A stretch of DNA of 64,000 nt from positions 6,191 through 70,190 of IMG/VR virus record IMGVR_UViG_2703718833_000007; one strand, 5' to 3'. The notes beneath the pieces were generated by a model. That model worked only from the letters and a program-made list of their open reading frames with translations. It was not told the DNA's origin and made no database searches. Position numbers and translations under genes: made by a program. Positions 6,006 through 58,101 of this stretch are shown here, piece after piece. The DNA is from a virus (lineage: Duplodnaviria > Heunggongvirae > Uroviricota > Caudoviricetes). The first letter of the stretch is position 1; each line of letters opens with the position of its first letter.

Positions 6006-6277
6006 TGAAAACATGGGATGCAAAGGCTGGCGATCTTGTTGTATTGCCTGAATATCGTGATGACCCTGGCATGGTTGTGCTGAATAAGACGTATAACGAT
6101 TTTGAGCGCCCACTATTGGTTAAATATCTGGACGGAGAAATCATAGAACCGCGCTACTTTGATGAGATTGAACTAAAGGCACGCAATGTCCGCGTTAAGC
6201 CGTTCCGGGCTTATGTTGAAGACCACTGGCGTAAATTGTTCGCCGGACTGAATGGGATGTACGGCGTATGGCTATAA
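6005..6277 (+). CDS. Hypothetical protein
   Basis: Track ORF 90 aa, packed in operon. Confidence 0.4.
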   Translation: MKTWDAKAGDLVVLPEYRDDPGMVVLNKTYNDFERPLLVKYLDGEIIEPRYFDEIELKARNVRVKPFRAYVEDHWRKLFAGLNGMYGVWL

Positions 6278-8219: not shown

Positions 8220-8456
8220 ATGGTTAGGGCTTTTTTAAAGTGGTTAGGTGAGTGGCTTTTGGCTACGCTTTTCGTTTTTTTGACGTTCATTGCAGTAATG
8301 ATCATCTTTCTTCTTTCCATGATGTTCCTTACATGGTCAGTACCAGAGTTTATGGATATTGGTAAGGTTCTTGATTTCGCTCGTGCTTTGTTGCTTTGTA
8401 GTGCATTTATTGGTTTTTGCAGGACTGTTTCGCCTGATTGGGATGATGAATGGTGA
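8220..8456 (+). CDS. Hypothetical membrane protein (2 predicted TM helices)
   Basis: Track ORF 78 aa, hydrophobic segments LLATLFVFLTFIAVMIIFLLSMMFL and ALLLCSAFIGF. Confidence 0.35.
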   Translation: MVRAFLKWLGEWLLATLFVFLTFIAVMIIFLLSMMFLTWSVPEFMDIGKVLDFARALLLCSAFIGFCRTVSPDWDDEW

Positions 8457-8460
8457 TCCT

Positions 8461-8694
8461 ATGGCCTTGTTCAATATGTCAGAGCCGCAATTTAACGCCG
8501 TAAAGACTGCCGCCCGCGCAGCGCTTTCGGCCTGCAAAGCGGAAGTAGAGAAAAACGGCTACAGCGATAAAGCTACGCGGCTGATATTAGAAAAGCATTA
8601 TCGCAAGGTCGCCCCACTAATCAGCATTGAGCGCTTTGTGTGGTTGGTGGGGTATTTAAACAACCGTTGGGGAACGGAACAGGATTATTTCTAA
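8461..8694 (+). CDS. Hypothetical protein
   Basis: Track ORF 8359-8694 trimmed to ATG after upstream stop. Confidence 0.3.
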   Translation: MALFNMSEPQFNAVKTAARAALSACKAEVEKNGYSDKATRLILEKHYRKVAPLISIERFVWLVGYLNNRWGTEQDYF

Positions 8695-8703
8695 GGGGGC
8701 GTA

Positions 8704-9243
8704 ATGAAAAATGATTTTGGAGGCAGCCACACTCCTAAGGAAATTAAAGATCTATGGCAGACGCCTAAACCAGTTTTCAGAGGAATGGATCGGGAATTTG
8801 AATTCGTCGCGGATGTGGCGGCAAACAAGGCAAACGCGCTAGTTCCGCGATATATAACCGAAGAAATGGACACGTTGCATTATCCGTGGGGAGCGGTGGC
8901 AATGCCTGGCGAGTATGTCTGGCTTAATCCGCCATATTCTAAACCGGGGCCATTCGTTGAGAAGGCGGCATTAGAACATCAACGAAATCACATTGGCTGT
9001 GTAATGCTGTTGCCCGCTGACATTTCTGTTAGCTGGTTCATGAACGGCGTGGAGACGGCAAACGAATGCCGATTAATCACGCGCGGGCGTCTGGCGTTTA
9101 TCAATGCTGAGACAGGGAAACCAGCAAGCGGAAACAACAAAGGCAGCTTGTTTTTGATCTGGCATCCACGGTGCAGACATGAATGTATTTTTACGCAGAT
9201 AACACGTAAAGAGCTATATGCAAGAGGTGCAGATAATGACTAG
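8704..9243 (+). CDS. Phage DNA N6-adenine methyltransferase (Dam-like, orphan)
   Basis: Track ORF 179 aa with catalytic NPPY motif (WLNPPYSKPGPF); no adjacent restriction gene. Confidence 0.8.
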   Translation: MKNDFGGSHTPKEIKDLWQTPKPVFRGMDREFEFVADVAANKANALVPRYITEEMDTLHYPWGAVAMPGEYVWLNPPYSKPGPFVEKAALEHQRNHIGCVMLLPADISVSWFMNGVETANECRLITRGRLAFINAETGKPASGNNKGSLFLIWHPRCRHECIFTQITRKELYARGADND

Positions 9244-9664
9244 TGCGGCAGATTTACTACGAATCGCAGCGGAAACAATAGAGCAAAGGGGTAAACAAAA
9301 CGGATACGACAGAAAAGAGGAAAAATCAGCGCCAAAAATAGCCACTATTTACAACGCTAAGAAGGGTACAAATTTAACCCCGCTTGATGTATGGGATCTG
9401 TTGATTTGTCTCAAGGAGGCGCGTTTAGAGGCCATTTTGGTAAATGGTTCTGACCCTACTGATACTTTGGTTGACTTGATTAGCTACAGCGCACTAAAAG
9501 CTGAGCAGATATTAAGCGATCATGAGGAAGAGCAAAAGAAAAAACAGTTCACTGCTCTTAATCCTCAATGTGGTTGTATTTCAACTCGGCTTGATTTGAG
9601 TTTTGACAGATCTGAAGCTATTCGCGATAAGAGGTATGACCCAAATGAAAAAGGTGGCAATTGA
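9236..9664 (+). CDS. Hypothetical protein
   Basis: Track ORF 9218-9664 trimmed to ATG (MTSAADLL) overlapping Dam stop. Confidence 0.4.
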   Translation: MTSAADLLRIAAETIEQRGKQNGYDRKEEKSAPKIATIYNAKKGTNLTPLDVWDLLICLKEARLEAILVNGSDPTDTLVDLISYSALKAEQILSDHEEEQKKKQFTALNPQCGCISTRLDLSFDRSEAIRDKRYDPNEKGGN

Positions 9665-10148
9665 CAGGTTATTAGCCTGCGTTTATGTCGCCGTTTTCGT
9701 GATCATCAACCTTATTGTTAACCATTGCGGCCCGTGGGTAATTCCGATCACCACGGTAGCCGCTGTGTGTGTCAATATGATGATCCGTGACTTCTTGCTG
9801 TATGACGGCGGCTTGAAATGGTCTGCTACAACATGCGCCGCCGCTGGCGCAATCACGGTAATGATAAATTACGATGCTGGAATGGTAGCGATCGCGTCAT
9901 TCGTTGCGGTTGTTTCCGGTGCGCTTATATCTGGAGGTGTTTACCGGGTTTTGCCTGGTGATTTCGATTCTAAGCGCTGGCCTGCAAACATAGCTTCAGC
10001 CATCGGGGATGCGTTAATTTTCCCGACGCTATCGTTTATGGCGTTTATGCCGGAAATATCAGCGATGCAGTTTATCTCAAAAATGGCAGCGGTAACGGTG
10101 ATCACTATCATCATGCGCCGCTATTTCACGTTTGAGGGTAGAAAATGA
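9645..10148 (+). CDS. Multi-pass inner-membrane protein, possibly VUT/YhhQ-like (queuosine-precursor transporter family)
   Basis: Track ORF 9603-10148, start taken at MKKVAIDRLL with AAGAGG SD; 4-5 hydrophobic segments; family assignment from loose pattern resemblance only. Confidence 0.35.
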   Translation: MKKVAIDRLLACVYVAVFVIINLIVNHCGPWVIPITTVAAVCVNMMIRDFLLYDGGLKWSATTCAAAGAITVMINYDAGMVAIASFVAVVSGALISGGVYRVLPGDFDSKRWPANIASAIGDALIFPTLSFMAFMPEISAMQFISKMAAVTVITIIMRRYFTFEGRK

Positions 10149-10672
10149 ATTGGGATGATTATTTTATATACAATCCGGACACAGGTAAGTTGTACTGGAA
10201 ATATAGAAATGACATAGAAGAATCAAGGCGTAAACAATGGAATGCGTGTAATGCTGGTCATGAGGTTGGACATATTGGCGGAAGCGGTGGGTGTCTTAAT
10301 ACAGCGCTTACCGTTGGCGGAAAGCGTTATAATTTAAAAGTACATAGAATATGTTACGAGATGTACTATGGGCCAATACCTGAAGGTAAGGAGGTTGATC
10401 ATATAAATCACGTTAAAACAGATAATCGAGCCGTCAATCTTGGATTAAAAGACCATAAAGATAATATGCGCAACATGTCTTTAATGGTAAACAATACCAG
10501 TGGGTGCGCTGGTATCCATAAAAATAAACATGGTAAATGGGTTGTTAGAATCGGTGGAGGCAAAAGAGGTAATAGAATTTATATAGGGTGTTTTTCTGAT
10601 ATCAATGACGCAATAAAAGCTAGGCGCGACGCTGAAAGAAAGTATGGCTATCATGAAAATCACGGCAAATAG
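10145..10672 (+). CDS. HNH homing endonuclease (HNH_3 + AP2-like DNA-binding domain), paralogue 1 of 4
   Basis: Track ORF 175 aa; INW-DYF start motif, GPIPEG-EVDHINH HNH core, C-terminal AP2-like (AGIHKNKHGKWVVRI). Confidence 0.85.
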   Translation: MNWDDYFIYNPDTGKLYWKYRNDIEESRRKQWNACNAGHEVGHIGGSGGCLNTALTVGGKRYNLKVHRICYEMYYGPIPEGKEVDHINHVKTDNRAVNLGLKDHKDNMRNMSLMVNNTSGCAGIHKNKHGKWVVRIGGGKRGNRIYIGCFSDINDAIKARRDAERKYGYHENHGK

Positions 10673-10869
10673 AACAACCACGCCACCGCCGCGCGGCTTT
10701 GCCCGTGCTGTATTCCTGGCTAACGACCGGGCCATCAATCGTGCTACGCTCAACCGCGTTTTACCGGACTGAAATTTACAAAATGGCGTCATTGCGTGAT
10801 GTGGATCACATAATGGCGCTTTTCACCTTGTTCTGACGTATCCGTTTTGTATACTTCAAACAAGCAAAA

Positions 10870-47459: not shown

Positions 47460-48464
<1,005 letters not shown>

Positions 48465-48941
48465 CAAAAGCAATTTTTCCGGCTGTCTGTATACAAAAAC
48501 GCCGCAAAGTTTGAGCGAAGTCAATAAACTCTCTACCCATTCAGGGCAATATCTCTCTTGCAGGTGAATGCAACGTCAAGCGATGGGCGTTGCGCTCCAT
48601 ATTGTCTTACTTCCTTTTTTGAATTACTGCATAGCACAATTGATTCGTACGACGCCGACTTTGATGAGTCGGCTTTTTTTTGCCTGTTATTTATCAGCGT
48701 CTACCCTTTAAGAGTCCACCCAATGACCAGAGGGAAATATGACGACACTTATTTATTTGCAAATTCCTGTCCCTGAACCGATTCCTGGCGATCCTGTTCC
48801 AGTGCCCGATCCGATCCCTCGCCCGCAACCCATGCCTGACCCACCACCCGATGAAGAACCGATTAAATTGTCGCATCGTGAGCGTAGATCTGCGAGGATA
48901 CGCGCCTGCTAACTTTGCGTCGATGACCACGAGAATAGATT

Positions 48942-50315
48942 GTGACCGCTTTTTCTACCCTGAATGTTTTGCCTCCCGCCCAACTCACGAACCTTAATGA
49001 GTTGGGTTATTTAACCATGACGCCGGTGCAGGCCGCCGCGCTTCCGGCGATCCTTGCCGGAAAAGATGTTCGCGTGCAGGCGAAAACCGGCAGCGGCAAA
49101 ACGGCGGCTTTTGGCCTCGGCTTGTTACAGCAAATTGATGCGTCGCTATTTCAAACCCAGGCTTTAGTGCTGTGTCCTACGCGTGAACTGGCGGATCAGG
49201 TGGCAGGTGAATTGCGTCGGCTGGCGCGTTTTCTGCCAAATACCAAAATTTTGACGTTGTGCGGTGGTCAACCGTTCGGTATGCAGCGTGATTCGTTGCA
49301 ACATGCGCCGCATATTATCGTGGCAACGCCGGGGCGTTTGCTGGATCACCTGCAAAAAGGCACGGTATCACTGGATGCGTTGAATACGCTGGTGATGGAT
49401 GAGGCCGACCGCATGCTGGATATGGGATTTAGCGATGCCATTGATGATGTCATCCGTTTTGCGCCTGCATCTCGACAGACGCTTCTGTTTTCGGCAACCT
49501 GGCCGGAAGCCATCGCTGCAATCAGCGGACGAGTGCAACGCGATCCTTTGGCGATTGAAATTGACTCAACAGATGCTTTGCCACCCATTGAACAACAATT
49601 TTATGAGACATCCAGCAAAGGCAAAATTCCTCTGTTGCAACGGTTATTAAGCTTGCATCAGCCATCCTCTTGCGTGGTGTTTTGCAATACCAAAAAAGAT
49701 TGCCAGGCTGTCTGCGACGCGCTGAATGAAGTAGGGCAAAGTGCATTGTCATTACACGGCGATTTGGAGCAACGCGATCGCGATCAGACCCTGGTACGTT
49801 TTGCTAACGGTAGCGCCCGTGTACTGGTCGCGACTGATGTTGCTGCGCGTGGTCTGGATATTAAATCGCTTGAGCTGGTGGTGAACTTTGAGCTGGCGTG
49901 GGACCCTGAAGTTCATGTACATCGCATCGGTCGTACAGCTCGTGCAGGAAATAGCGGTCTGGCGATCAGTTTCTGTGCTCCGGAAGAAGCACAGCGGGCC
50001 AATATCATTTCTGACATGTTGCAGATAAAACTTAACTGGCAAACGCCGCCAGCTAATAGTTCCATTGCGACGCTGGAAGCAGAAATGGCAACGTTGTGTA
50101 TCGATGGCGGGAAAAAAGCCAAAATGCGCCCGGGTGATGTATTAGGTGCACTGACAGGAGATATCGGGCTTGATGGCGCAGATATTGGCAAAATCGCCGT
50201 GCATCCGGCGCATGTCTATGTCGCGGTCCGTCAGGCTGTTGCTCATAAAGCATGGAAACAGTTACAGGGCGGGAAGATTAAAGGAAAAACGTGCCGGGTG
50301 CGGTTATTAAAATAA
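48942..50315 (+). CDS. dbpA: ATP-dependent RNA helicase DbpA (DEAD-box), host gene
   Basis: Track ORF 457 aa; Walker A AKTGSGKT, DEAD box (VMDEAD), SAT, HRIGRTAR motifs. Confidence 0.95.
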   Translation: MTAFSTLNVLPPAQLTNLNELGYLTMTPVQAAALPAILAGKDVRVQAKTGSGKTAAFGLGLLQQIDASLFQTQALVLCPTRELADQVAGELRRLARFLPNTKILTLCGGQPFGMQRDSLQHAPHIIVATPGRLLDHLQKGTVSLDALNTLVMDEADRMLDMGFSDAIDDVIRFAPASRQTLLFSATWPEAIAAISGRVQRDPLAIEIDSTDALPPIEQQFYETSSKGKIPLLQRLLSLHQPSSCVVFCNTKKDCQAVCDALNEVGQSALSLHGDLEQRDRDQTLVRFANGSARVLVATDVAARGLDIKSLELVVNFELAWDPEVHVHRIGRTARAGNSGLAISFCAPEEAQRANIISDMLQIKLNWQTPPANSSIATLEAEMATLCIDGGKKAKMRPGDVLGALTGDIGLDGADIGKIAVHPAHVYVAVRQAVAHKAWKQLQGGKIKGKTCRVRLLK

Positions 50316-50335
50316 TGAAATGTTGAATTGCCGGG

Positions 50336-50432
50336 TGCAAGAGTAAACATCTTATTCGGGATTGCCGGATGCGACGCTGGCCGCGTCTTATCCGGCCTCC
50401 ATAAGAGTAGCCCGATACGCTTGCGCATCGGG
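50336..50432. repeat. REP/BIME-type repetitive extragenic palindromes between dbpA and ttcA
   Basis: tgccggatgcgacgctggccgcgtcttatccggcc and gcccgatacgcttgcgcatcgggc match the E. coli REP pattern. Confidence 0.7.
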
Positions 50433-50443
50433 CGCTATCCTGG

Positions 50444-51379
50444 TTATTTCACTTCAACCACATTCAGCCGTAACTCATCCAACTGATTTTCATCTTCTTC
50501 TGGCTGCCAGCACGCCGGTTGTAGTGGGATCTCTTCGCGATCAAACGCCAGATCACCCCCGTTAACCACTTCAGAACCGTGGGTGATGCCTTTGAAATCG
50601 AACAGGTTGGTATCGCACAGATGCGACGGCACCACATTCTGCATCGCGCTGAACATCGTCTCGATACGCCCTGGATAACGTTTATCCCAGTCACGCAACA
50701 TGTCAGCAATCACCTGACGTTGCAGGTTAGGCTGTGAACCGCACAGGTTGCACGGAATAATCGGGAACGCTTTTGCATCGGCAAATCGCTGAATATCTTT
50801 CTCGCGGCAGTAGGCCAGCGGACGAATAACGATATGTTTGCCATCATCGCTCATCAGTTTCGGAGGCATACCTTTCATCTTACCGCCGTAGAACATATTT
50901 AAGAACAACGTTTGCAGGATATCGTCACGATGGTGACCCAACGCGATCTTCGTCGCCCCCAGTTCCGTTGCGGTACGATAAAGGATACCGCGACGAAGGC
51001 GAGAACACAGTGAGCAAGTGGTTTTGCCCTCTGGAATCTTCTCTTTCACGATACCGTAAGTATTCTCTTCAACAATCTTGTACTCAACGCCCAGCTTTTC
51101 AAGATACTCGGGCAGAACGTGTTCCGGGAAGCCCGGTTGCTTTTGATCGAGGTTAACAGCCACCAGCGAAAAATTGATTGGCGCGCTTTGCTGCAAATTG
51201 CGCAGAATCTCCAGCATGGTATAGCTGTCTTTACCCCCGGAGAGGCAAACCATGATGCGATCGCCTTCTTCAATCATATTGAAGTCAGCAATGGCTTCGC
51301 CCACGTTACGACGCAGACGTTTTTGTAATTTGTTCAGATTGTATTGTTCTTTCTTTGTAATTTGTTGATTTTCTTGCAT
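50444..51379 (-). CDS. ttcA: tRNA 2-thiocytidine biosynthesis protein TtcA (5' end adjacent to Rac-type integrase)
   Basis: Track ORF 311 aa; PP-loop SGGKDS and Cys motifs. Confidence 0.9.
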
Positions 51380-51430
51380 TATTTCAGTTCTCTGGTACTA
51401 AATGGGGCAAATTGGGGGCAAACTTTGCAA

Positions 51431-52666
51431 CTACGATAACCGCGCATTCAACATGGCTATCTGTTCGTCGTTCATGTCATCAATCCACATACCGTAAATT
51501 TCATACACCATCTGCGCAGTTTCATGCCCCATTTGGCTGGCTATAAATGCCGGGTTCGCTCCTGCCGTCAACAGCCAGCAGGCAAAAGTATGCCGCGTAT
51601 GGTACGGATTACGGCGGCGAATACCAGCACGTTTTACTGCTGCATTCCACCTTGCCCCCAAACTGCTTACCGAGTAATAAGGTTTTTGTTTTCCGTTACA
51701 CACCCTGGGCATGAAAACAAAATGCAGTTTTTGCTTTTCGGTTCTGCCGTACTCCCGATGATAAAAGGTGATTTCGCTTTTGCGATGATGCCCGGTCAGT
51801 TTGTATTGCTCCTTCAGTGCTTCAAGAGCAGGCTGCAGTAGTGTTACTGTTCGGATCCCGGCATTTGTTTTTGGGGGACCGAACATATCAAGTATCGTCA
51901 GGTTTCTTCTGACATTCACTATTCCCTTTTCGAGATCCACATCCTCCCACGCCAGAGCTGCCAGTTCCCCGTGACGAAGTCCTGAGTAAACGGCAAATTT
52001 CCACAAGTTCTGGCTCTGTCCTTTTTCACTTTCCATTAATGCATTGAATTCTGTTTTAGATAACGGATCAGGCTTTATTCTGTTTCGCTGTAATTTTTTT
52101 ACTCCTTCAAATGGTTTGGTTGATATAAATCCCGACTGATACGCAAAACGCAACAGCGAACAGAGCAGGGCGATATAGTTATCAACTGTGCGCACGGTTC
52201 TTCCTTTTTTGTTGGATCTTGGATTATCCAGGTAAAGCGTTTCTCCATGCAGCAGTTCATTCCGGTAGTTTAAGATATCGCTATAACGAATATGTGATAT
52301 CGGGGTACTTTCACAAATTATTATTCTGAGTGTTTTTAATTGTGATTTTGTTTTCTTCATTGTGTATGTTGTTAACTCTGTCTCTTTAATTTTTGTCCAG
52401 ATATCACAAAGCTCTCCGAACGTTTTTATGACTCTCGTTGTCACCATTTTTGCCCCAGTGCTGGACTGGGGAAAACGTCTTAAATACTCAAATTCACCGG
52501 AGTTTATTTCATGAACTATCAGCGCTCTTAAATTTCCGGCCTTTTTAATATTACTGTTTGTAATCTCCCAGCCTTTTAATGTTTCCCGACATCGTTTTCC
52601 TCGAAACATGAACCAGATGCGAATGTATCTACCTCTAATCTCGACACCTGTTGGTAATTTAGACAT
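51431..52666 (-). CDS. intR: Rac prophage integrase (tyrosine recombinase)
   Basis: Track ORF 411 aa; C-terminal catalytic R...HxxR...Y region (NPYHTRHTFA). Confidence 0.9.
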   Translation of the reverse strand: MSKLPTGVEIRGRYIRIWFMFRGKRCRETLKGWEITNSNIKKAGNLRALIVHEINSGEFEYLRRFPQSSTGAKMVTTRVIKTFGELCDIWTKIKETELTTYTMKKTKSQLKTLRIIICESTPISHIRYSDILNYRNELLHGETLYLDNPRSNKKGRTVRTVDNYIALLCSLLRFAYQSGFISTKPFEGVKKLQRNRIKPDPLSKTEFNALMESEKGQSQNLWKFAVYSGLRHGELAALAWEDVDLEKGIVNVRRNLTILDMFGPPKTNAGIRTVTLLQPALEALKEQYKLTGHHRKSEITFYHREYGRTEKQKLHFVFMPRVCNGKQKPYYSVSSLGARWNAAVKRAGIRRRNPYHTRHTFACWLLTAGANPAFIASQMGHETAQMVYEIYGMWIDDMNDEQIAMLNARLS

Positions 52667-52667
52667 A

Positions 52668-52883
52668 TCATGAGTCTTTGATAAACTGATTTATCTTTGG
52701 ATAGTTGTACCAGATAATCCCTCGTTTGCTGTCTGGCTTACCTAAAGGAGATACTCGTTTGAAGTGGAAGCCCTCCACCCAACAGTTCTGGCGGTATGCT
52801 TCAATTTGTCTGGCCCCCAGACCAGTGCGAAGCATCAGGCCGTATTCAACCATCCACTCTTCATTAAAGATTACTTGTGCCAT
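52668..52883 (-). CDS. xisR: Rac prophage excisionase
   Basis: Track ORF 52668-52907 trimmed to [15 protein letters not shown]. Confidence 0.8.
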
Positions 52884-52961
52884 CGCATCACCTCTGGCAG
52901 GCGCCAATGTTAGACTGAAATTGACGCCCGATGTTGATTATTAATAATAAGCTATGAAGTT

Positions 52962-53171
52962 TTAATTTGAATACAATGCAATTCTCGAGGACTGAAGTTT
53001 CTCGCAATTAAAATTTATCAGTTTTACTTTCTGCTCTCTGGAAACGCCTGCTTCTTTTTTACCTGAGAGCATTTTTTCGCATTCTGATTTCGTTAGTTTA
53101 GATTTTGAATATCTTGTCCAGTTAGTAGGAGTGCCACCTTCCTTTTCAATAGTGGCGGTAATTTTATACAT
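52962..53171 (-). CDS. rcbA: Rac prophage protein RcbA (YdaC)
   Basis: Track ORF 52962-53243 trimmed to MYKITATIEKEGG. Confidence 0.75.
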   Translation of the reverse strand: MYKITATIEKEGGTPTNWTRYSKSKLTKSECEKMLSGKKEAGVSREQKVKLINFNCEKLQSSRIALYSN

Positions 53172-53358
53172 GAACACCTCCATTATTATTTCCAGTGGTT
53201 CGTTTATTCCATCTTTCGAGTGCTTCTTTTTCACCTCCACCATAACCGGTTCGGGATTCGCATCCGTTACACTTCGCTCGGTAATATCCTGAAATGGCTT
53301 TCACCGTTACTGATGGACAACCACAAAATGGACATGGTTTAACATTGTCATATCTCAT
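53164..53358 (-). CDS. ralR: Restriction-alleviation protein / type I TA toxin RalR (Lar)
   Basis: Track ORF 53164-53397 trimmed to MRYDNVKPCPFCGC; matches remembered Lar. Confidence 0.8.
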   Translation of the reverse strand: MRYDNVKPCPFCGCPSVTVKAISGYYRAKCNGCESRTGYGGGEKEALERWNKRTTGNNNGGVHV

Positions 53359-53414
53359 AATTTTTCTCATAAAAAATATTTCAAGTTGGCGGTGCATTAC
53401 ACCGCCAGGCTGAA

Positions 53415-54224
53415 TTATTCCTCTGAATTATCGATTACACTGTATTCCCCGGTTAATACAGAGGAATCTGCAGGATCGATTGTCAGTGGTTCCTTTTCAT
53501 CCATTGATACTGCACGCTGGATCTCAATTGATACGGGCAGATATTTGAACAGGCGACGAATAGCCGTTTTCTTTGCCATTTCTTCCCAGTGAGTTACCCA
53601 CGGCCCGTTATTACCAGCTTTACTCAGGCTGCGCACCAGCTCAATCTGTTTGCGCGTCATAACTTCAAACTGAGTACCTCCGTCTTTCAGTCTTGCGACA
53701 GCATAGACGTGGGTAACCGGGGCATCTTCGTTTTCTCCCGGGCGGTGTATTAACTTTTCATCAAGGCCAAATTCGAAGCTAAACTCGTCACCTTCACGGA
53801 CAACACGGGCTGACAGGCTGGCGATTTGACCAGAACGGCGAGCCAGATCAATCATGCCGCGATAGCCAATGATTAGCTGAACGTTCTTTTTACCGCTCTT
53901 TTCGTTTTTATTACCAAAAGGCAGTAAATATGCATGACCGAGGGCGCTACCTGGCTCAAGTCCGAGCTGTGAACACTGTACGATCGCACTGACAAAACTC
54001 ATAGTGTCACAGTTTCCTAACGCCGGAACTTTACGAATTTCTGTGGTGGCGATACGGATCATACGTTCAGCCGTCATATGGCGTGGAAGAGCTGCTGCCA
54101 GTTGCTCTTTCATTGATGGCTGGTTAATAAAACTAATCACGTCGCTATTTTTAACTGCTGCTGGTGCACGGTTTCCCTGAGTTTTTTGCAGATCGGTTTT
54201 TGCGATTGGTGGTTGCTTAGTCAT
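53415..54224 (-). CDS. recT: RecT single-strand annealing protein
   Basis: Track ORF 53415-54281 trimmed to [14 protein letters not shown] (269 aa). Confidence 0.95.
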
Positions 54225-56817
54225 TTGCATATTCCTTAGCCCAGCGGGGCAGTGATAATGTCTTAATAGCTGGCCATTCATCGGTATTCAGGCAGTCAGA
54301 CAGGGTTCGCAGATTGCGGTGATATTCCTGTTGACCTGCCAGTTTTGCTTCTTCGCCCATCATGAAAATTTCAACCGGATAACGTCCGCATTCAATAGTT
54401 GTGCTGGCAACCAGAAAAACGAAAGTTGGCTGCACTCCAAACTGTGCTTCATAACCGTCACTGTAGAATGCATCCTGAACGTGATAGCGGTAGTCGTAAT
54501 AAGCGGTTTTGAATCGTTGAATATCCGCCGTAGTTTTCACGTCCATGATCCAGTGAAATTCAGGGATAATTTTGTCCGGACGGCACCGACACAAAATTCC
54601 TGTTTCAGGATCTTCCCAGTAAATTGATGATTCAGCGTGTCCGGCGCTTTCAACAAGCCATTGCCCCAGCGGCAAAGCCATAACGCTTTGATACATGAGT
54701 TCAATTTTCCGGCCTTCTTCCGCAGTGATAACCGTTTTTCCTGTGCTTGCGCATTCCATCAGAAACGCTTTCTCTTCTTCTTTTCCGGCGTTTGTACGGC
54801 GGTTAAATTCAGGTGCTACGATAAAGCGGTTACTGAATTCCTCCGGTTCAAGTACCCGGCAGTGGAAAGCGGTTCCTAAATCGAGCGTTTTTGTCTTTGT
54901 GGTGTCCACGGGGGCATTTTTACGCCACAAATATAGTGCCGGAGTATCAGCAATGTCATCGAGCTGAGACTTACTGACACCGGGACCCGCGTGGTAATTC
55001 TCATTCGAAATTCCGTAATAAATACCTGGCTCTATGTCTTCTACGATTACGGGATCTGCGACTTCGCCAGTTTCATCACTGCAATCGCGATGCGGATCGC
55101 TGCCAGCATTCTCATTGTGCGGATGTTCAGCGCCTTCCATTTCCTCCGGATCATTTTCCTTAGCTTCAACCTGACTCTCTTCATCGAATGTTTCCTGGTA
55201 TGTTGCGTCGCCCATCACCGCACCACAGTCAGGGCAGTTATCCCCGCCAGTCTGGCCGCAGGCATTGCAGGCTATTTCCGGTTCCTGTTGCACTACTGGC
55301 TCAGGTTGATTCATATCCGGGCTGGTTTTTTCCGTTTCTGGCTGGTTCTGGTACACACAATCGCGAGTCTGGATCCCCTTTACCCATTTCGGATCGTTCG
55401 GGTCGCTAATTCCGTCAACAAATTCACCACGTGATGCAGCAAGCAATTTATCGGCATCGACAGGATTTTTTGATGGAATGTTTTTCCGGGCTTCATGGAG
55501 TTCTGCCCGCAGTTCCTGATATTTCGCATCAACAGAATTTACCTGTGACTGAGCATCCAGCGGCTGCGTGTCCTGATGATGTTCAGTTGCGTCCGGTTCC
55601 ATTGTTTCAGCCTCTCCCTGTTCAACTGCCGTTGTTCCAGATGGTTGCGGTTTTTCTTCATCATCCTGTTTTCCTTCTTCTGTTACTCGCTGCGGCATCG
55701 GGGCAGAGGAGCGACCGCAGGCAATATCCACGATTTCCGGATCAGGGTTGGCATGATCGGTTTCAGTCAGTACTTTGTTCAGATATTCAGTGACGTGCGC
55801 GGGGATGACCTCGATCCCAATTGGTGCTTCTTTTACGGACGCAACCACGATGGCGCGGGAATAATCCAGCCCGCCAGGCATGGTGATGAATTTGTCGCGG
55901 AAAACAGAAAAGGGCGGTTTATTTTCAGCGATAATTTCCTCAATGCGTTTAGCGTGTGCCGGATGAAGGTTATAGATGTCCAGATCCATTGAACGGGCCA
56001 GTACGCCAGTGGCTACGTCGCGCGCCAGTGACGTCAGATCGTGTACGAAACCTTCGCCGCGATCGGTGAGGTTTCCGCCGCCAGCATTAGCACCGGAAGC
56101 CGTGCGAGTGATGTGTGAAACACGATTACCCTTCATCCACTCTTTTGTCAGCAGTCCTCGATCGGTGTAGTCAGCGTTCAGGTATGCTTCGAAAAAAGCA
56201 GTTATCAGTCCCAGGTTTGAATTACCAGGATTAGGGAAAACTTTGTCAGTGTCACGAACCAGTTTGTGGAGTTCGCGAATTTCCAGCGGGTCGAGCAGGC
56301 TGGTTTTGTGGGAAACAGCCAGGGCAGTAACAGCCGGTAGTTCTTCAGCCCGAGCAATGTGTAATGCCTGGAGTCCGTCGCGTGAAACGTGCGTTACCGG
56401 TTTTTCGCTGCCGTGTTGAGCAAGCCAACGAATGGGCAGTTCCTGGCCAGAAATTGGGAGTAGCATATTCTCCTCAATCTCAGTCATGTCTTCGCCGTTG
56501 ACGTTGGTATTGCCTTGATAGTGAGCGTTGTCTGGTGCTGCTCCCGGTTTTAGTTCCCATGTCATGGAGTCTTTGCTGAGTTGATAGCGTTCACTCCAGG
56601 TAAAATCGATCTCACCTTCAGCGGGCAGGTCATTAACGACAGGAAAATTCGTGGCAACAGCTTTAAAATAGCTGCTCAGTTTTTTACCTGACTTAACGAT
56701 CAGGTAGTCCAGAGTGGCACAGGTCGATTCAAAATCGTTGCTTGCCCACAGGACGACGTCAGGTTCACCGGATGATTTTTTCGCTTTCCGTAACAGGAAG
56801 AGTGGTTTTGTGCTCAT
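54217..56817 (-). CDS. recE: Exodeoxyribonuclease VIII (RecE), full length
   Basis: Track ORF 866 aa; overlaps recT start as in K-12. Confidence 0.95.
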
Positions 56818-56918
56818 TGTTTTTTAACCTCAACTCAGATTAAAATTCGTTTTGTTCAGTGAATGATCTTGCCGGATACACACTGTTCATAGCCTGCGCC
56901 ATACGCAGGCTATTTCTT

Positions 56919-57194
56919 TCAGATTTCACCTTTTAATTTCATTGCAATTAGAGTTGCCAGAAATTCGGCTTTTTTTTCTGCGGGCAGATTCTTTCCGATA
57001 TGCACCAGGCACATTTTTTTGACACCTTCATCAAGTGTTTTTACGTTGCCTGATGGACCATCGATATCAACCACAGTGAATGGGGTTTCTTTATTTTCTG
57101 TTTTAATTACGTAGCCAATGCGCTTTCCTTCCAGATTCACCTCGTGAACAATGTCATCGGTAGTTACAACAGTGGCTTCATAATTGGTAATCAT
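56919..57194 (-). CDS. racC: Rac prophage protein RacC
   Basis: Track ORF 56919-57242 trimmed to MITNYEATVV. Confidence 0.8.
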   Translation of the reverse strand: MITNYEATVVTTDDIVHEVNLEGKRIGYVIKTENKETPFTVVDIDGPSGNVKTLDEGVKKMCLVHIGKNLPAEKKAEFLATLIAMKLKGEI

Positions 57195-57268
57195 GTTTTT
57201 CTCCTTAATTAAGGTTGAGCGAATACCTGCCATTTCTGGCATAAATTCAGTTTCGAATAGTCAATTAA

Positions 57269-57439
57269 TTAAAGTTCATGTGCCATCTGGTCTTTTTCGG
57301 CACAAGCTTCACTGCAATATTTTCTCGGTTCGTCTTTTGATAAAATCCCGTGCATGAAGTGAAGCATTCTTTCAATAGCTTTGCTTTCTTCAACGTCTTT
57401 TTTGCAAAGGTGGTAAGCACATTTTATTTTCTTAGTCAT
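57269..57439 (-). CDS. ydaE: Rac prophage small Cys-rich protein YdaE
   Basis: Own translation [56 protein letters not shown]. Confidence 0.6.
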   Translation of the reverse strand: MTKKIKCAYHLCKKDVEESKAIERMLHFMHGILSKDEPRKYCSEACAEKDQMAHEL

Positions 57440-57660
57440 CACCATGACTCCGCCTTTACAGGTAAACCATCACGACCGAGGAAGACTTTAATCATGCGGT
57501 CAGTAATGCATGTTTTTGTGGTCAGGTTACGAATATATAGTTTTCGCTTTTTAATATTGTTTGCCGAGGCAATATATGTCCGGCCTTCATGAAGAACATA
57601 ATCGCCAGGAGTCACACACTGACGTGGTATTTCATCAGTTCCGAAGTGATGTGCAATCAT
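57439..57660 (-). CDS. kilR: FtsZ inhibitor KilR
   Basis: Track ORF 57439-57672 trimmed to [14 protein letters not shown]. Confidence 0.8.
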
Positions 57661-58101
57661 AATTATCTCCATTTTTACAAATGAACTTTGTTGATGCGGT
57701 GCCTGGTGCCTCCAGGTGACTGCAACCAGTTAACAATTACAGTCGGCTTTCCCACCCAAACCAATAAGGACTAACATGACTTTTAACTGTGCCACGTGCG
57801 CTTAGCCGCATTCACCGCATCACAAAATTCACTTTAAAAAGGGCGGACATCAGCCGAACTTCAAGAAAAAAACTGATGCCGCCAGGACTACACACAGCAA
57901 TGTCGTTATTTACAACCGGAGGCGCACTCCCACCATTTAAATTTAACAGACAAGACCGACTCTTTATGGATATCGGAAATGCGCCTTCGTGTTGTGCCCG
58001 GTTTTATTTCACCACCTCCGGGCTTCGGTGGTCTCGGCTATACCCCTACAGCGAGAGCTTGTGTTAACATTTCAATACCCTTACAGTTGAGAGTTATTGA
58101 T

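Follow-up and report, generated by a model that had tools for sequence, protein, structure and literature searches.

Proteins of the QPTR/YhhQ family import queuosine precursors, with preQ0 and preQ1 taken up in Escherichia coli and queuine in Chlamydia (PMC11130926). Homologues are also encoded by phages, where they were noted 'without correlation with any specific group' (Hutinet et al. 2019, PMC6884629); only one YhhQ-only virus, an environmental halophage, appears in the table of that study, and the mEp group is not listed there (PMC6884629). The usual view of these phage homologues is that they help to provide preQ0 where DNA is modified by means of the transglycosylase DpdA. For example, phage CAjan carries its VUT (YhhQ-type) gene in a folE-queDEC-dpdA cluster, and deletion of the gene left the dPreQ0 modification of the DNA unchanged (PMC7544227). 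The dispensability of this one tested phage homologue puts the purpose of phage YhhQ homologues in doubt. Here, we describe a VUT gene that lies close to an orphan Dam-family methyltransferase gene at positions 8704-10148 of a 64,000-nucleotide stretch of viral DNA (hereafter the window; positions 6,191 to 70,190 of IMG/VR record IMGVR_UViG_2703718833_000007), in what is, by nucleotide comparison, a prophage of the mEp021 (mEpimmI) type of temperate coliphage. The account that we judge probable is that this mEp021-type module combines an orphan Dam with a solitary VUT importer maintained by selection, in a phage that makes no 7-deazaguanine DNA.

Profile comparisons place the membrane protein of this module in the VUT/YhhQ (QPTR) family as a short, divergent member; the homology is real, but only profiles detect it. 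Taken singly, it had no Pfam match at E<=0.1, no NCBIfam match and nothing significant in a PDB sequence search, and its comparison with E. coli YhhQ was not significant by either pairwise BLASTP (E=0.2) or hhalign with a shallow profile (E=0.43). An exhaustive HMMER search with a profile seeded on the mEp-type proteins and one 36%-identical relative (cut-off E<=1e-3) recovered 272 relatives, mostly of 155-180 amino acids (aa). Ninety-four of these formed an alignment, A2, whose members were compared one by one with the Pfam family Vut_1 (PF02592): 91 of the 94 matched at E<=1 and 85 at E<=1e-3, with a best value of 5e-15, and no other family recurred. The hhalign comparison of A2 with E. coli YhhQ gave a probability of 93.9% (E=1.6e-7) over 144 columns, with the family motifs in register. 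A second database search with A2 found 316 proteins, and PF02592 was present on 120 of 120 among the matches listed; several carried names such as 'YhhQ (DUF165 family)' or 'queuosine precursor transporter', and phage relatives of the window protein are annotated 'VUT family protein'.

A sequence-only reading of the window had pointed to a polytopic membrane protein two genes downstream of the methyltransferase, loosely resembling YhhQ, and had proposed a search with a DUF165/VUT hidden Markov model (HMM). The six predicted helices agree with the first of these statements, and the resemblance held up through the 85 relatives on Vut_1 and the hhalign match. The direct HMM match was sub-threshold, the route through relatives and profiles led to PF02592, and assignment to another family did not occur. 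In current annotation, the gene is called 'hypothetical protein' by PGAP in every E. coli genome and belongs to PHROG 4899, 'unknown function'. Its open reading frame (ORF) was listed as 9603-10148, and the start is most likely the ATG at 9645, as in relatives, with 9636 and 9603 as alternatives.

As a separate observation, about 25 of the best 150 short-VUT relatives are longer, at about 290-340 aa (P0037, P0051-P0053, P0059, P0063, P0065, P0073, P0076, P0082 and others). Besides the VUT domain, these have an extra hydrophobic helix and, at the C-terminus, an extension of about 130 aa that appears beta-rich and often ends in an aromatic residue and then basic ones. The extension may be a fusion or a gene-calling artefact.

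Compared with E. coli YhhQ (QPTR, COG1738, PF02592), the importer of preQ0 and preQ1, the window VUT is homologous over essentially its whole short length. The two share an Asn in the first transmembrane helix (TM1), the xRD, (I)A.AS and N...D..F motifs and a Lys in the last helix, and both are solitary membrane proteins without a gene for an ATPase partner. However, the window VUT is shorter (167 aa versus 221 aa) and only about 22% identical at profile level. It also differs in an Asp-to-Asn change in DxxxR(D), the loss of the Asp in TM4, its phage-encoded position in a probable early lytic operon and the lack of a preQ1 riboswitch.

At the level of structure, the window VUT is predicted to have a six-transmembrane-helix fold like that of the S-components of energy-coupling factor (ECF) transporters. 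The AlphaFold2 (AF2) model that was retained had six helices and a pLDDT of 90.8; a model from an alignment of eight sequences (pLDDT 56) was discarded. The best full-length structural matches of the retained model were all substrate-binding ECF S-components, such as RibU. In a viral structure library, the top three matches had a probability of 1.00 and E-values of 0.02-0.13, none at E<=0.001, and one was labelled 'Putative vitamin uptake transporter'. Identity to the ECF S-components RibU, FolT, BioY, ThiT and BtuM is only 7-15%, and no EcfT or EcfA genes are present; on the model, the relation to these proteins is one of fold and not of family membership.

The near-invariant residues of the family are all kept in the window VUT (N22, G29, R48, D49, A82, A84, S85, N115, D122, F126, F131, Q142 and K146), while several moderately conserved polar positions are changed (D44N, H52L, D96S, N112W, S114A and S123A), as is G132M. 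The protein could instead be a phage factor that does not transport anything, for instance a superinfection-exclusion, holin-like or envelope-stress protein that shares only a generic helical bundle with transporters. mEp021 does encode small membrane-active proteins just upstream, among them Ipe with its pleiotropic envelope effects (PMC11893012). We regard this as unlikely, since the homology to PF02592 is sequence-based and full-length, extending beyond fold, the window VUT keeps the near-invariant ones among the polar intramembrane residues typical of the family, and substrate-binding S-components account for all of its best full-length structural matches.

The relationship between VUT and DpdA in other phages provides the context for this gene. 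A tblastn search with the window VUT against 50,697 phage records found 21 records, seven of the mEp type and 14 others at 27-35% identity (E 1e-10 to 1e-23). Two DpdA HMMs were built from genes annotated 'queuine tRNA-ribosyltransferase'. With these, a DpdA ORF was found to abut the VUT ORF, usually with overlapping ends, in PEAT2, AB3P2, Opt-719, LHE71, Phc, RCIP0319, Tbat1_6 and ECO111 5-P (E 1e-91 to 1e-132). In CAjan, DpdA lies about 2.3 kb from VUT in the same cluster. Metagenomic loci gave a similar picture: DpdA overlaps VUT in L018-20 (E=7.6e-48), and L008 has queC-like, queD, queE, folE and dpdA genes within 7 kb of VUT. Thus, in the other, DpdA-linked lineages examined, the short phage VUT near-obligately adjoins or clusters with dpdA.

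These DpdA-coupled proteins (CAjan gp41, PEAT2 gp18, those of the Drexlerviridae phages vB_EcoD_Opt-719, LHE71 and Phc, and that of Acinetobacter phage AB3P2) belong to the same subfamily of about 155-170 aa as the window VUT and, like it, are encoded in early or DNA-metabolism regions. They differ in their partners: the DpdA-coupled genes are found next to dpdA or in one cluster with it, in some cases together with folE and queCDE, whereas the window VUT belongs to a module with Dam, DUF6378 and a second methyltransferase gene, which can be reduced to a stub. In bacteria, a short VUT stands beside a TGT/DpdA gene (TGT, tRNA-guanine transglycosylase) in a dpd-type cluster with DpdD and an AAA_22 protein (L024:1-5516), so the VUT-DpdA pairing is not confined to phages. 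One other short VUT (L021-23) was found in an ordinary bacterial chromosome context.

Two metagenomic phage contigs hold a further gene of interest at this position. Genes of phrog_15826, a label without function, lie upstream of VUT and overlap its start (L007:2464-3117 and L008:7409-8053). Their products have DNGxF, PDV, IGGS and D(S/G)T motifs that recall DpdA, and hhalign against the DpdA alignment gave E=3.5e-4 with a probability of 37%. On this resemblance, phrog_15826 may be an unrecognised DpdA-like family.

In the window prophage, the putative importer is the only part of a preQ0 or 7-deazaguanine pathway that is present. The searches took in every six-frame ORF of the window, of the stretches from mEp021 and MagusPhagus and of the prophage in STEC308 with its left arm. 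Across these, queries with three types of DpdA, bacterial TGT and phrog_15826 returned nothing better than E of about 0.1 by tblastn, the built HMMs or phmmer, the last run with CAjan DpdA and a bacterial TGT, and no homologue of FolE, QueC, QueD or QueE from CAjan and L008 exceeded the same level. The DpdA HMMs are those that reach their high scores beside VUT in the eight other phages. A preQ1 riboswitch often precedes yhhQ in bacteria, but neither this nor any other Rfam element was found in the Dam-VUT region. With neither DpdA/TGT nor preQ0 genes, a DpdA-based system for 7-deazaguanine modification of DNA is not present. The first reading had seen no DpdA or Que genes in the window, which these searches confirm, and had suggested looking for dpdA and queCDE in the unseen left arm; in the STEC308 relative, that arm has none. 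Its caution that a link to DNA modification was speculative was therefore warranted for this prophage type.

It is conceivable that the phage does make 7-deazaguanine DNA, with VUT as the supplier and an unrecognised transglycosylase such as the DUF6378 protein or another hypothetical protein as the inserting enzyme. In other phages, after all, VUT and DNA transglycosylases go closely together, the DUF6378 gene of this module is coupled in translation to VUT and lacks an assigned function, and unannotated DpdA-like families may exist, as phrog_15826 in L007 and L008 illustrates. However, no ORF of the window or of its relatives resembles DpdA, TGT or phrog_15826, the DUF6378 domain of about 100 aa (predicted to be helical-repeat-like at best) is far too small for a TGT-type TIM barrel, and the module has one or two methyltransferases instead, which together make this reading very unlikely.

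The absence of dpdA is a feature that the window VUT shares with its closest relatives outside the mEp group, P0014 (52% identical), P0015 (44%) and P0012 (36%). The P0014 contig (L029) has the gene order Dam-DUF6378-VUT-phrog_757 methyltransferase-NinG-RusA-Q, the same as in the mEp group. In the P0015 locus (L030, a temperate-phage contig), VUT lies two genes upstream of an N6_N4 methyltransferase, and in that of P0012 (L005) it lies between genes for a DNA ligase and a MazG-like pyrophosphohydrolase. No DpdA was found within the fetched flanks of these three loci. No partner common to all four DpdA-less lineages was found; methyltransferases are present in three.

In a neighbour-joining (NJ) tree rooted on YhhQ, the four DpdA-less lineages form one clade (bootstrap 100/100), which is sister to the DpdA-adjacent VUTs of the Drexlerviridae (T1-like phages) with an NJ bootstrap of 91/100. 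All four have Asn at the first position of DxxxRD (position 44). This position is Asp or Glu in YhhQ and in all DpdA-linked homologues but that of CAjan, which has Ile. By tree and signature, the window VUT is thus placed in a monophyletic, DpdA-less clade of phage VUTs marked by an Asp-to-Asn change in DxxxRD.

The window VUT is not a decaying gene. Among seven orthologues (window, mEp021, MagusPhagus, STEC308, RM9245, LSU61 and N921), the Nei-Gojobori dN/dS of VUT was 0.011-0.081 at dS of up to 0.5, below that of the adjacent Dam (0.036-0.100). The VUT gene is under strong purifying selection. The idea that it is a functionless leftover of an ancestral VUT-DpdA module would fit the loss here of a DpdA that abuts the homologue in the sister clade and elsewhere, a sequence too divergent for Pfam, and the CAjan homologue that is dispensable for modification (PMC7544227). 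Nevertheless, the selection analysis essentially refutes it, and the gene has an unbroken ORF in each of the 35 related E. coli prophages as well as in seven isolated phages, is kept at 52% identity with the same neighbours in L029 and has all the near-invariant family residues. We consider a decaying relic highly improbable.

The other half of the module is routine and already known. By its family matches, the product of 8704-9243 is a typical orphan phage Dam N6-adenine methyltransferase, with E=6.7e-52 and 176 bits against PF05869 (cut-off 28.1), E=1.1e-41 and 142.1 bits against the NCBIfam equivalog TIGR01712 phage_N6A_met (cut-off 97.05) and E=1.5e-63 against phrog_111, 'DNA methyltransferase'. 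It is the homologue of mEp021 gp30. In the translation, NPPY falls at residues 75-78 (nucleotides 8926-8937) within LNPPYS at residues 74-79; this motif and the PF05869 and TIGR01712 matches bear out the NPPY-motif N6-adenine methyltransferase of the first reading. The protein shares with the phage Dam family (PF05869/TIGR01712) a full-length HMM match above the equivalog cut-off, the NPPY motif, a length of about 180 aa, the lack of a cognate nuclease and an early, nin-like location, with no notable difference. Members of this family include the Dam-type orphan methyltransferases of HP1, T1 and Stx phages.

The same reading had reported no cognate restriction gene, correctly so, as the neighbours of Dam are an Ipe homologue, DUF6378, the membrane protein and a mobile HNH_3 gene. 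Among these, no restriction endonuclease co-inherited with Dam was found, and the sole nearby nuclease is the homing-type HNH_3 gene, whose start overlaps the VUT stop by 4 nucleotides (nt). Dam and HNH do lie within 1.5 kb on the same strand, as a restriction-modification-like pair might. However, HNH_3, phrog_99-type free-standing endonucleases are homing elements, and the gene is present at the window site in only five of the 35 related E. coli prophages and not in the other 30, all of which keep Dam. Other HNH genes lie between DUF6378 and VUT (N921) or after NinG (STEC308 and N921), and the HNH gene of the window accompanies a deletion of the neighbouring methyltransferase gene. This variable presence and position mark it as a mobile, homing-type gene rather than the cognate restriction partner of Dam, and it was rejected as such; a restriction-modification pair is hardly credible here.

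The gene affected by the deletion is a second DNA methyltransferase gene of the mEp021 gp33 type. Only its last codons remain in the window, with 96% identity to residues 221-247 of the RM9245 orthologue (E=1.9e-11, tblastn). In RM9245 the order is VUT-HNH-methyltransferase, and a blastn comparison skips positions 657-1274 of that locus, which corresponds to about 616 bp deleted in the window; STEC308 is in the same deleted state. The gene is intact in mEp021, MagusPhagus, RM9245, LSU61 and L029 (coordinates include L001:6215-6973 for mEp021 gp33, L026:4621-5364, L028:4434-5222 and L029:6158-6862). Although labelled 'DNA cytosine methyltransferase' in mEp021 and by PGAP, the gp33-type protein had no Pfam or NCBIfam match at E<=0.1 and matched only phrog_757, 'DNA methyltransferase'; its family and target base are not settled by the Pfam, NCBIfam and PHROG matches.

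Between Dam and VUT lies the DUF6378 gene, whose start overlaps the Dam stop by 8 nt and whose stop is overlapped by the VUT start by 20 nt. When orthologues are aligned, the N-terminal domain of about 100 aa proves invariant, while the C-terminal half varies. In the window, this half has a 34-codon in-frame deletion, giving 148 aa compared with 161-170 aa in most orthologues, and strain N921 has an HNH gene inserted at about residue 101. Searches of the PDB by phmmer and by profile found no relationship for DUF6378, and a homologue search returned close relatives only. Its PHROG label, 'phosphofructokinase', is uninformative. A link to MazG was also considered and is unsupported, as hhalign against the MazG-like neighbour of the P0012 homologue gave a 12-residue patch with a probability of 2.6%.

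The setting of the module is that of an mEp021-type prophage. The prophage stretch is 88-92% identical in nucleotide sequence to Escherichia phages mEp021, mEp515, mEp554, mEp010, mEp044, mEp013 and MagusPhagus, and matching prophages were found in 35 of 5,426 complete E. coli genomes. The Dam, DUF6378 and VUT trio is kept in 35 of the 35, and in every one the genomic match reaches exactly to the end of the VUT gene, with variable content downstream. We read 8704-10148 as the part of the prophage's rightward early region that is devoted to DNA modification, and the overlapping ends of Dam, DUF6378 and VUT indicate translational coupling. In mEp021, the corresponding genes are annotated as gp29 (Ipe), gp30 ('putative DNA N-6 adenine methyltransferase'), gp31 (hypothetical), gp32 ('putative membrane protein, 6 transmembrane domains') and gp33 ('putative DNA cytosine methyltransferase').

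mEp021 has three nut sites and a lambda-N-like early antitermination circuit, with nutR2 just downstream of the Dam-VUT gene block (PMC11893012). By analogy, this placement suggests early lytic expression of the module. When the region was scanned for promoters and terminators, promoter-like sites were not enriched and no interpretable signal emerged. The features of the window are listed in Table 1.

Table 1. Positions of the Dam-VUT module, its neighbours and other features within the window
Feature	Position	Strand	Details
Small membrane protein	8220-8456		
Ipe homologue	8461-8694		
Phage Dam-family N6-adenine DNA methyltransferase, orphan	8704-9243	+	179 aa; PF05869, TIGR01712, phrog_111
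DUF6378 protein	9236-9664 (ORF 9218-9664)	+	PF19905 E=5.8e-8; orthologues named 'DUF6378 domain-containing protein' by PGAP
Divergent short VUT/YhhQ (QPTR, PF02592/COG1738) membrane protein of the DpdA-less phage clade (by profile and tree)	9645-10148	+	167 aa; six predicted helices
Free-standing HNH_3 homing-type endonuclease	10145-10672	+	PF13392 E=3.2e-16; phrog_99 E=7.5e-49
3' stub of second DNA methyltransferase gene (mEp021 gp33 type, phrog_757)	10689-10772	+	Last 27 codons
NinF-like, NinG, RusA and Q-antiterminator genes			Follow HNH_3
Head-region gene	22834-24225		463 aa; orthologues named 'anti-CBASS protein Acb1 family protein' by PGAP
Presumed zntB	47481-48464		327 aa; host segment
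FnrS sRNA	48560-48677		Host segment
DEAD-box helicase with DbpA RNA-binding domain (dbpA)	48942-50315		Host segment
PP-loop gene, presumed ttcA	50444-51379		
Integrase of Rac-like prophage	51431-52666		
RalA antitoxin sRNA	52987-53165		Rac-like prophage

Directly upstream of Dam lies a homologue of the mEp021 protein Ipe, the 'inducer of pleiotropic effects' that is behind the haemolytic phenotype of lysogens (PMC11893012). It is preceded by a small membrane protein whose homologues are labelled 'cell division protein FtsK' by PGAP. In the head region, the gene with the Acb1 name sits between the terminase and head-morphogenesis genes, the expected position of the portal, and the name may be a misnomer or reflect a fusion.

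At its 5' edge, the window begins with a Lin1244-like replication gene inside the prophage, so the arm from integrase to helicase is missing; the same arm was inspected in the close relative STEC308 (L004). At the other side, the mEp021-type prophage ends before about 47.4 kb. We take the first ORF beyond it to be zntB from its size and the K-12 gene order, which would place the prophage next to zntB, and a PP-loop gene further on to be ttcA. A second, Rac-like prophage follows this host segment, with an integrase, the RalA antitoxin sRNA, RecT, RecE/exonuclease VIII and SieB. The window thus holds two prophages flanking a short host segment, with this segment and the second prophage at 47481-64000.

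How the module might work can be outlined from these parts. Dam would methylate the phage DNA in advance during lytic growth, likely at GATC by analogy with its relatives, and this methylation may protect it from methylation-sensitive restriction, possibly with effects on packaging or regulation; anti-restriction or regulatory methylation was also what the first reading had in mind. VUT would be a working solitary importer of a small heteroaromatic base; the known substrates of its family are preQ0, preQ1 and queuine. As the phage has no enzyme to insert such a base into DNA, it would make no 7-deazaguanine DNA, and what VUT brings in would go to the Tgt and tRNA of the host. The Asp-to-Asn change specific to the clade leaves room for another reading, in which the substrate or role of VUT has shifted. 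A VUT-DpdA pair is the probable ancestor of the module, and methyltransferases would then have taken over DNA protection from the transglycosylase.

Several points weigh against this account. Against Pfam Vut_1, the window VUT alone reached only E=0.23 and 12.3 bits, compared with a gathering threshold of 27.2, over profile positions 6-149 of 152, so its membership rests on transitive and profile evidence. The changes at polar positions such as D44N mean that its substrate may not be a 7-deazaguanine, and the CAjan homologue could be deleted without effect on modification. The DpdA survey covered about a dozen lineages, and metagenomic loci were taken with flanks of +/-5-8 kb, not always as whole genomes. 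GATC is the target of characterised phage Dam relatives and is likely, but by analogy only, that of the window Dam, its specificity being assumed from these relatives. Finally, E. coli already has yhhQ as well as the full de novo queuosine pathway, and an additional importer of preQ0 or preQ1 would therefore bring no obvious benefit.

A change of substrate or role within the clade, with VUT importing, exporting or sensing another small molecule during lytic growth, possibly one linked to methyltransferases or nucleotides, is a tentative alternative. It would account for a monophyletic clade (100/100) with Asp44-to-Asn and other polar replacements, for strong purifying selection in a phage without a 7-deazaguanine enzyme and for neighbours that are methyltransferases (Dam and phrog_757, or N6_N4_Mtase) or a DNA ligase and a MazG-like pyrophosphohydrolase. 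Specificity also varies within the family, between preQ0/preQ1 and queuine (PMC11130926). On the other hand, sequence alone gives no substrate, methyltransferases are common in phage early regions and their association in four lineages may be incidental, and VUT has kept every core invariant residue of its family. Together, the Asp-to-Asn signature and the strong selection suggest that such a shift should be taken seriously. In its broader form, the possibility that mEp021-type phages and at least three uncultured lineages share a DpdA-independent YhhQ/QPTR-like clade, selected for something other than the supply of 7-deazaguanine for the DNA of the phage, is also one that we hold only tentatively.

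In summary, the orphan Dam combined with a solitary VUT importer, in a phage without 7-deazaguanine DNA, is the account that we retain. The methylase and phage YhhQ homologues as such were already known. What is new is that a core mEpimmI gene has been assigned to a family, that a near-obligate adjacency of VUT and dpdA in other phages is documented, and that a conserved DpdA-independent clade is recognised. The assignment corrects the annotation of this core gene, which the mEpimmI phages and 35 E. coli genomes carry as 'hypothetical' or as a 'putative membrane protein'.

These findings bear on the role that has been assigned to phage YhhQ homologues. In about a dozen DpdA-linked lineages, VUT is welded to dpdA, typically in overlapping frames, and notably in those without preQ0 synthesis. 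A sister clade has lost this link, yet its conservation is as tight as that of an essential gene, and this in a group of coliphages with a reported prevalence in the human gut. The cultivable mEp phages, together with E. coli K-12 and existing uptake assays, offer a simple experimental handle on the cargo of VUT. If true, a DpdA-independent function could be the uptake of a different base or cofactor for lytic growth, or the manipulation of the queuosine/preQ pool of the host, which would have consequences for host tRNA or for competing DpdA-dependent phages.

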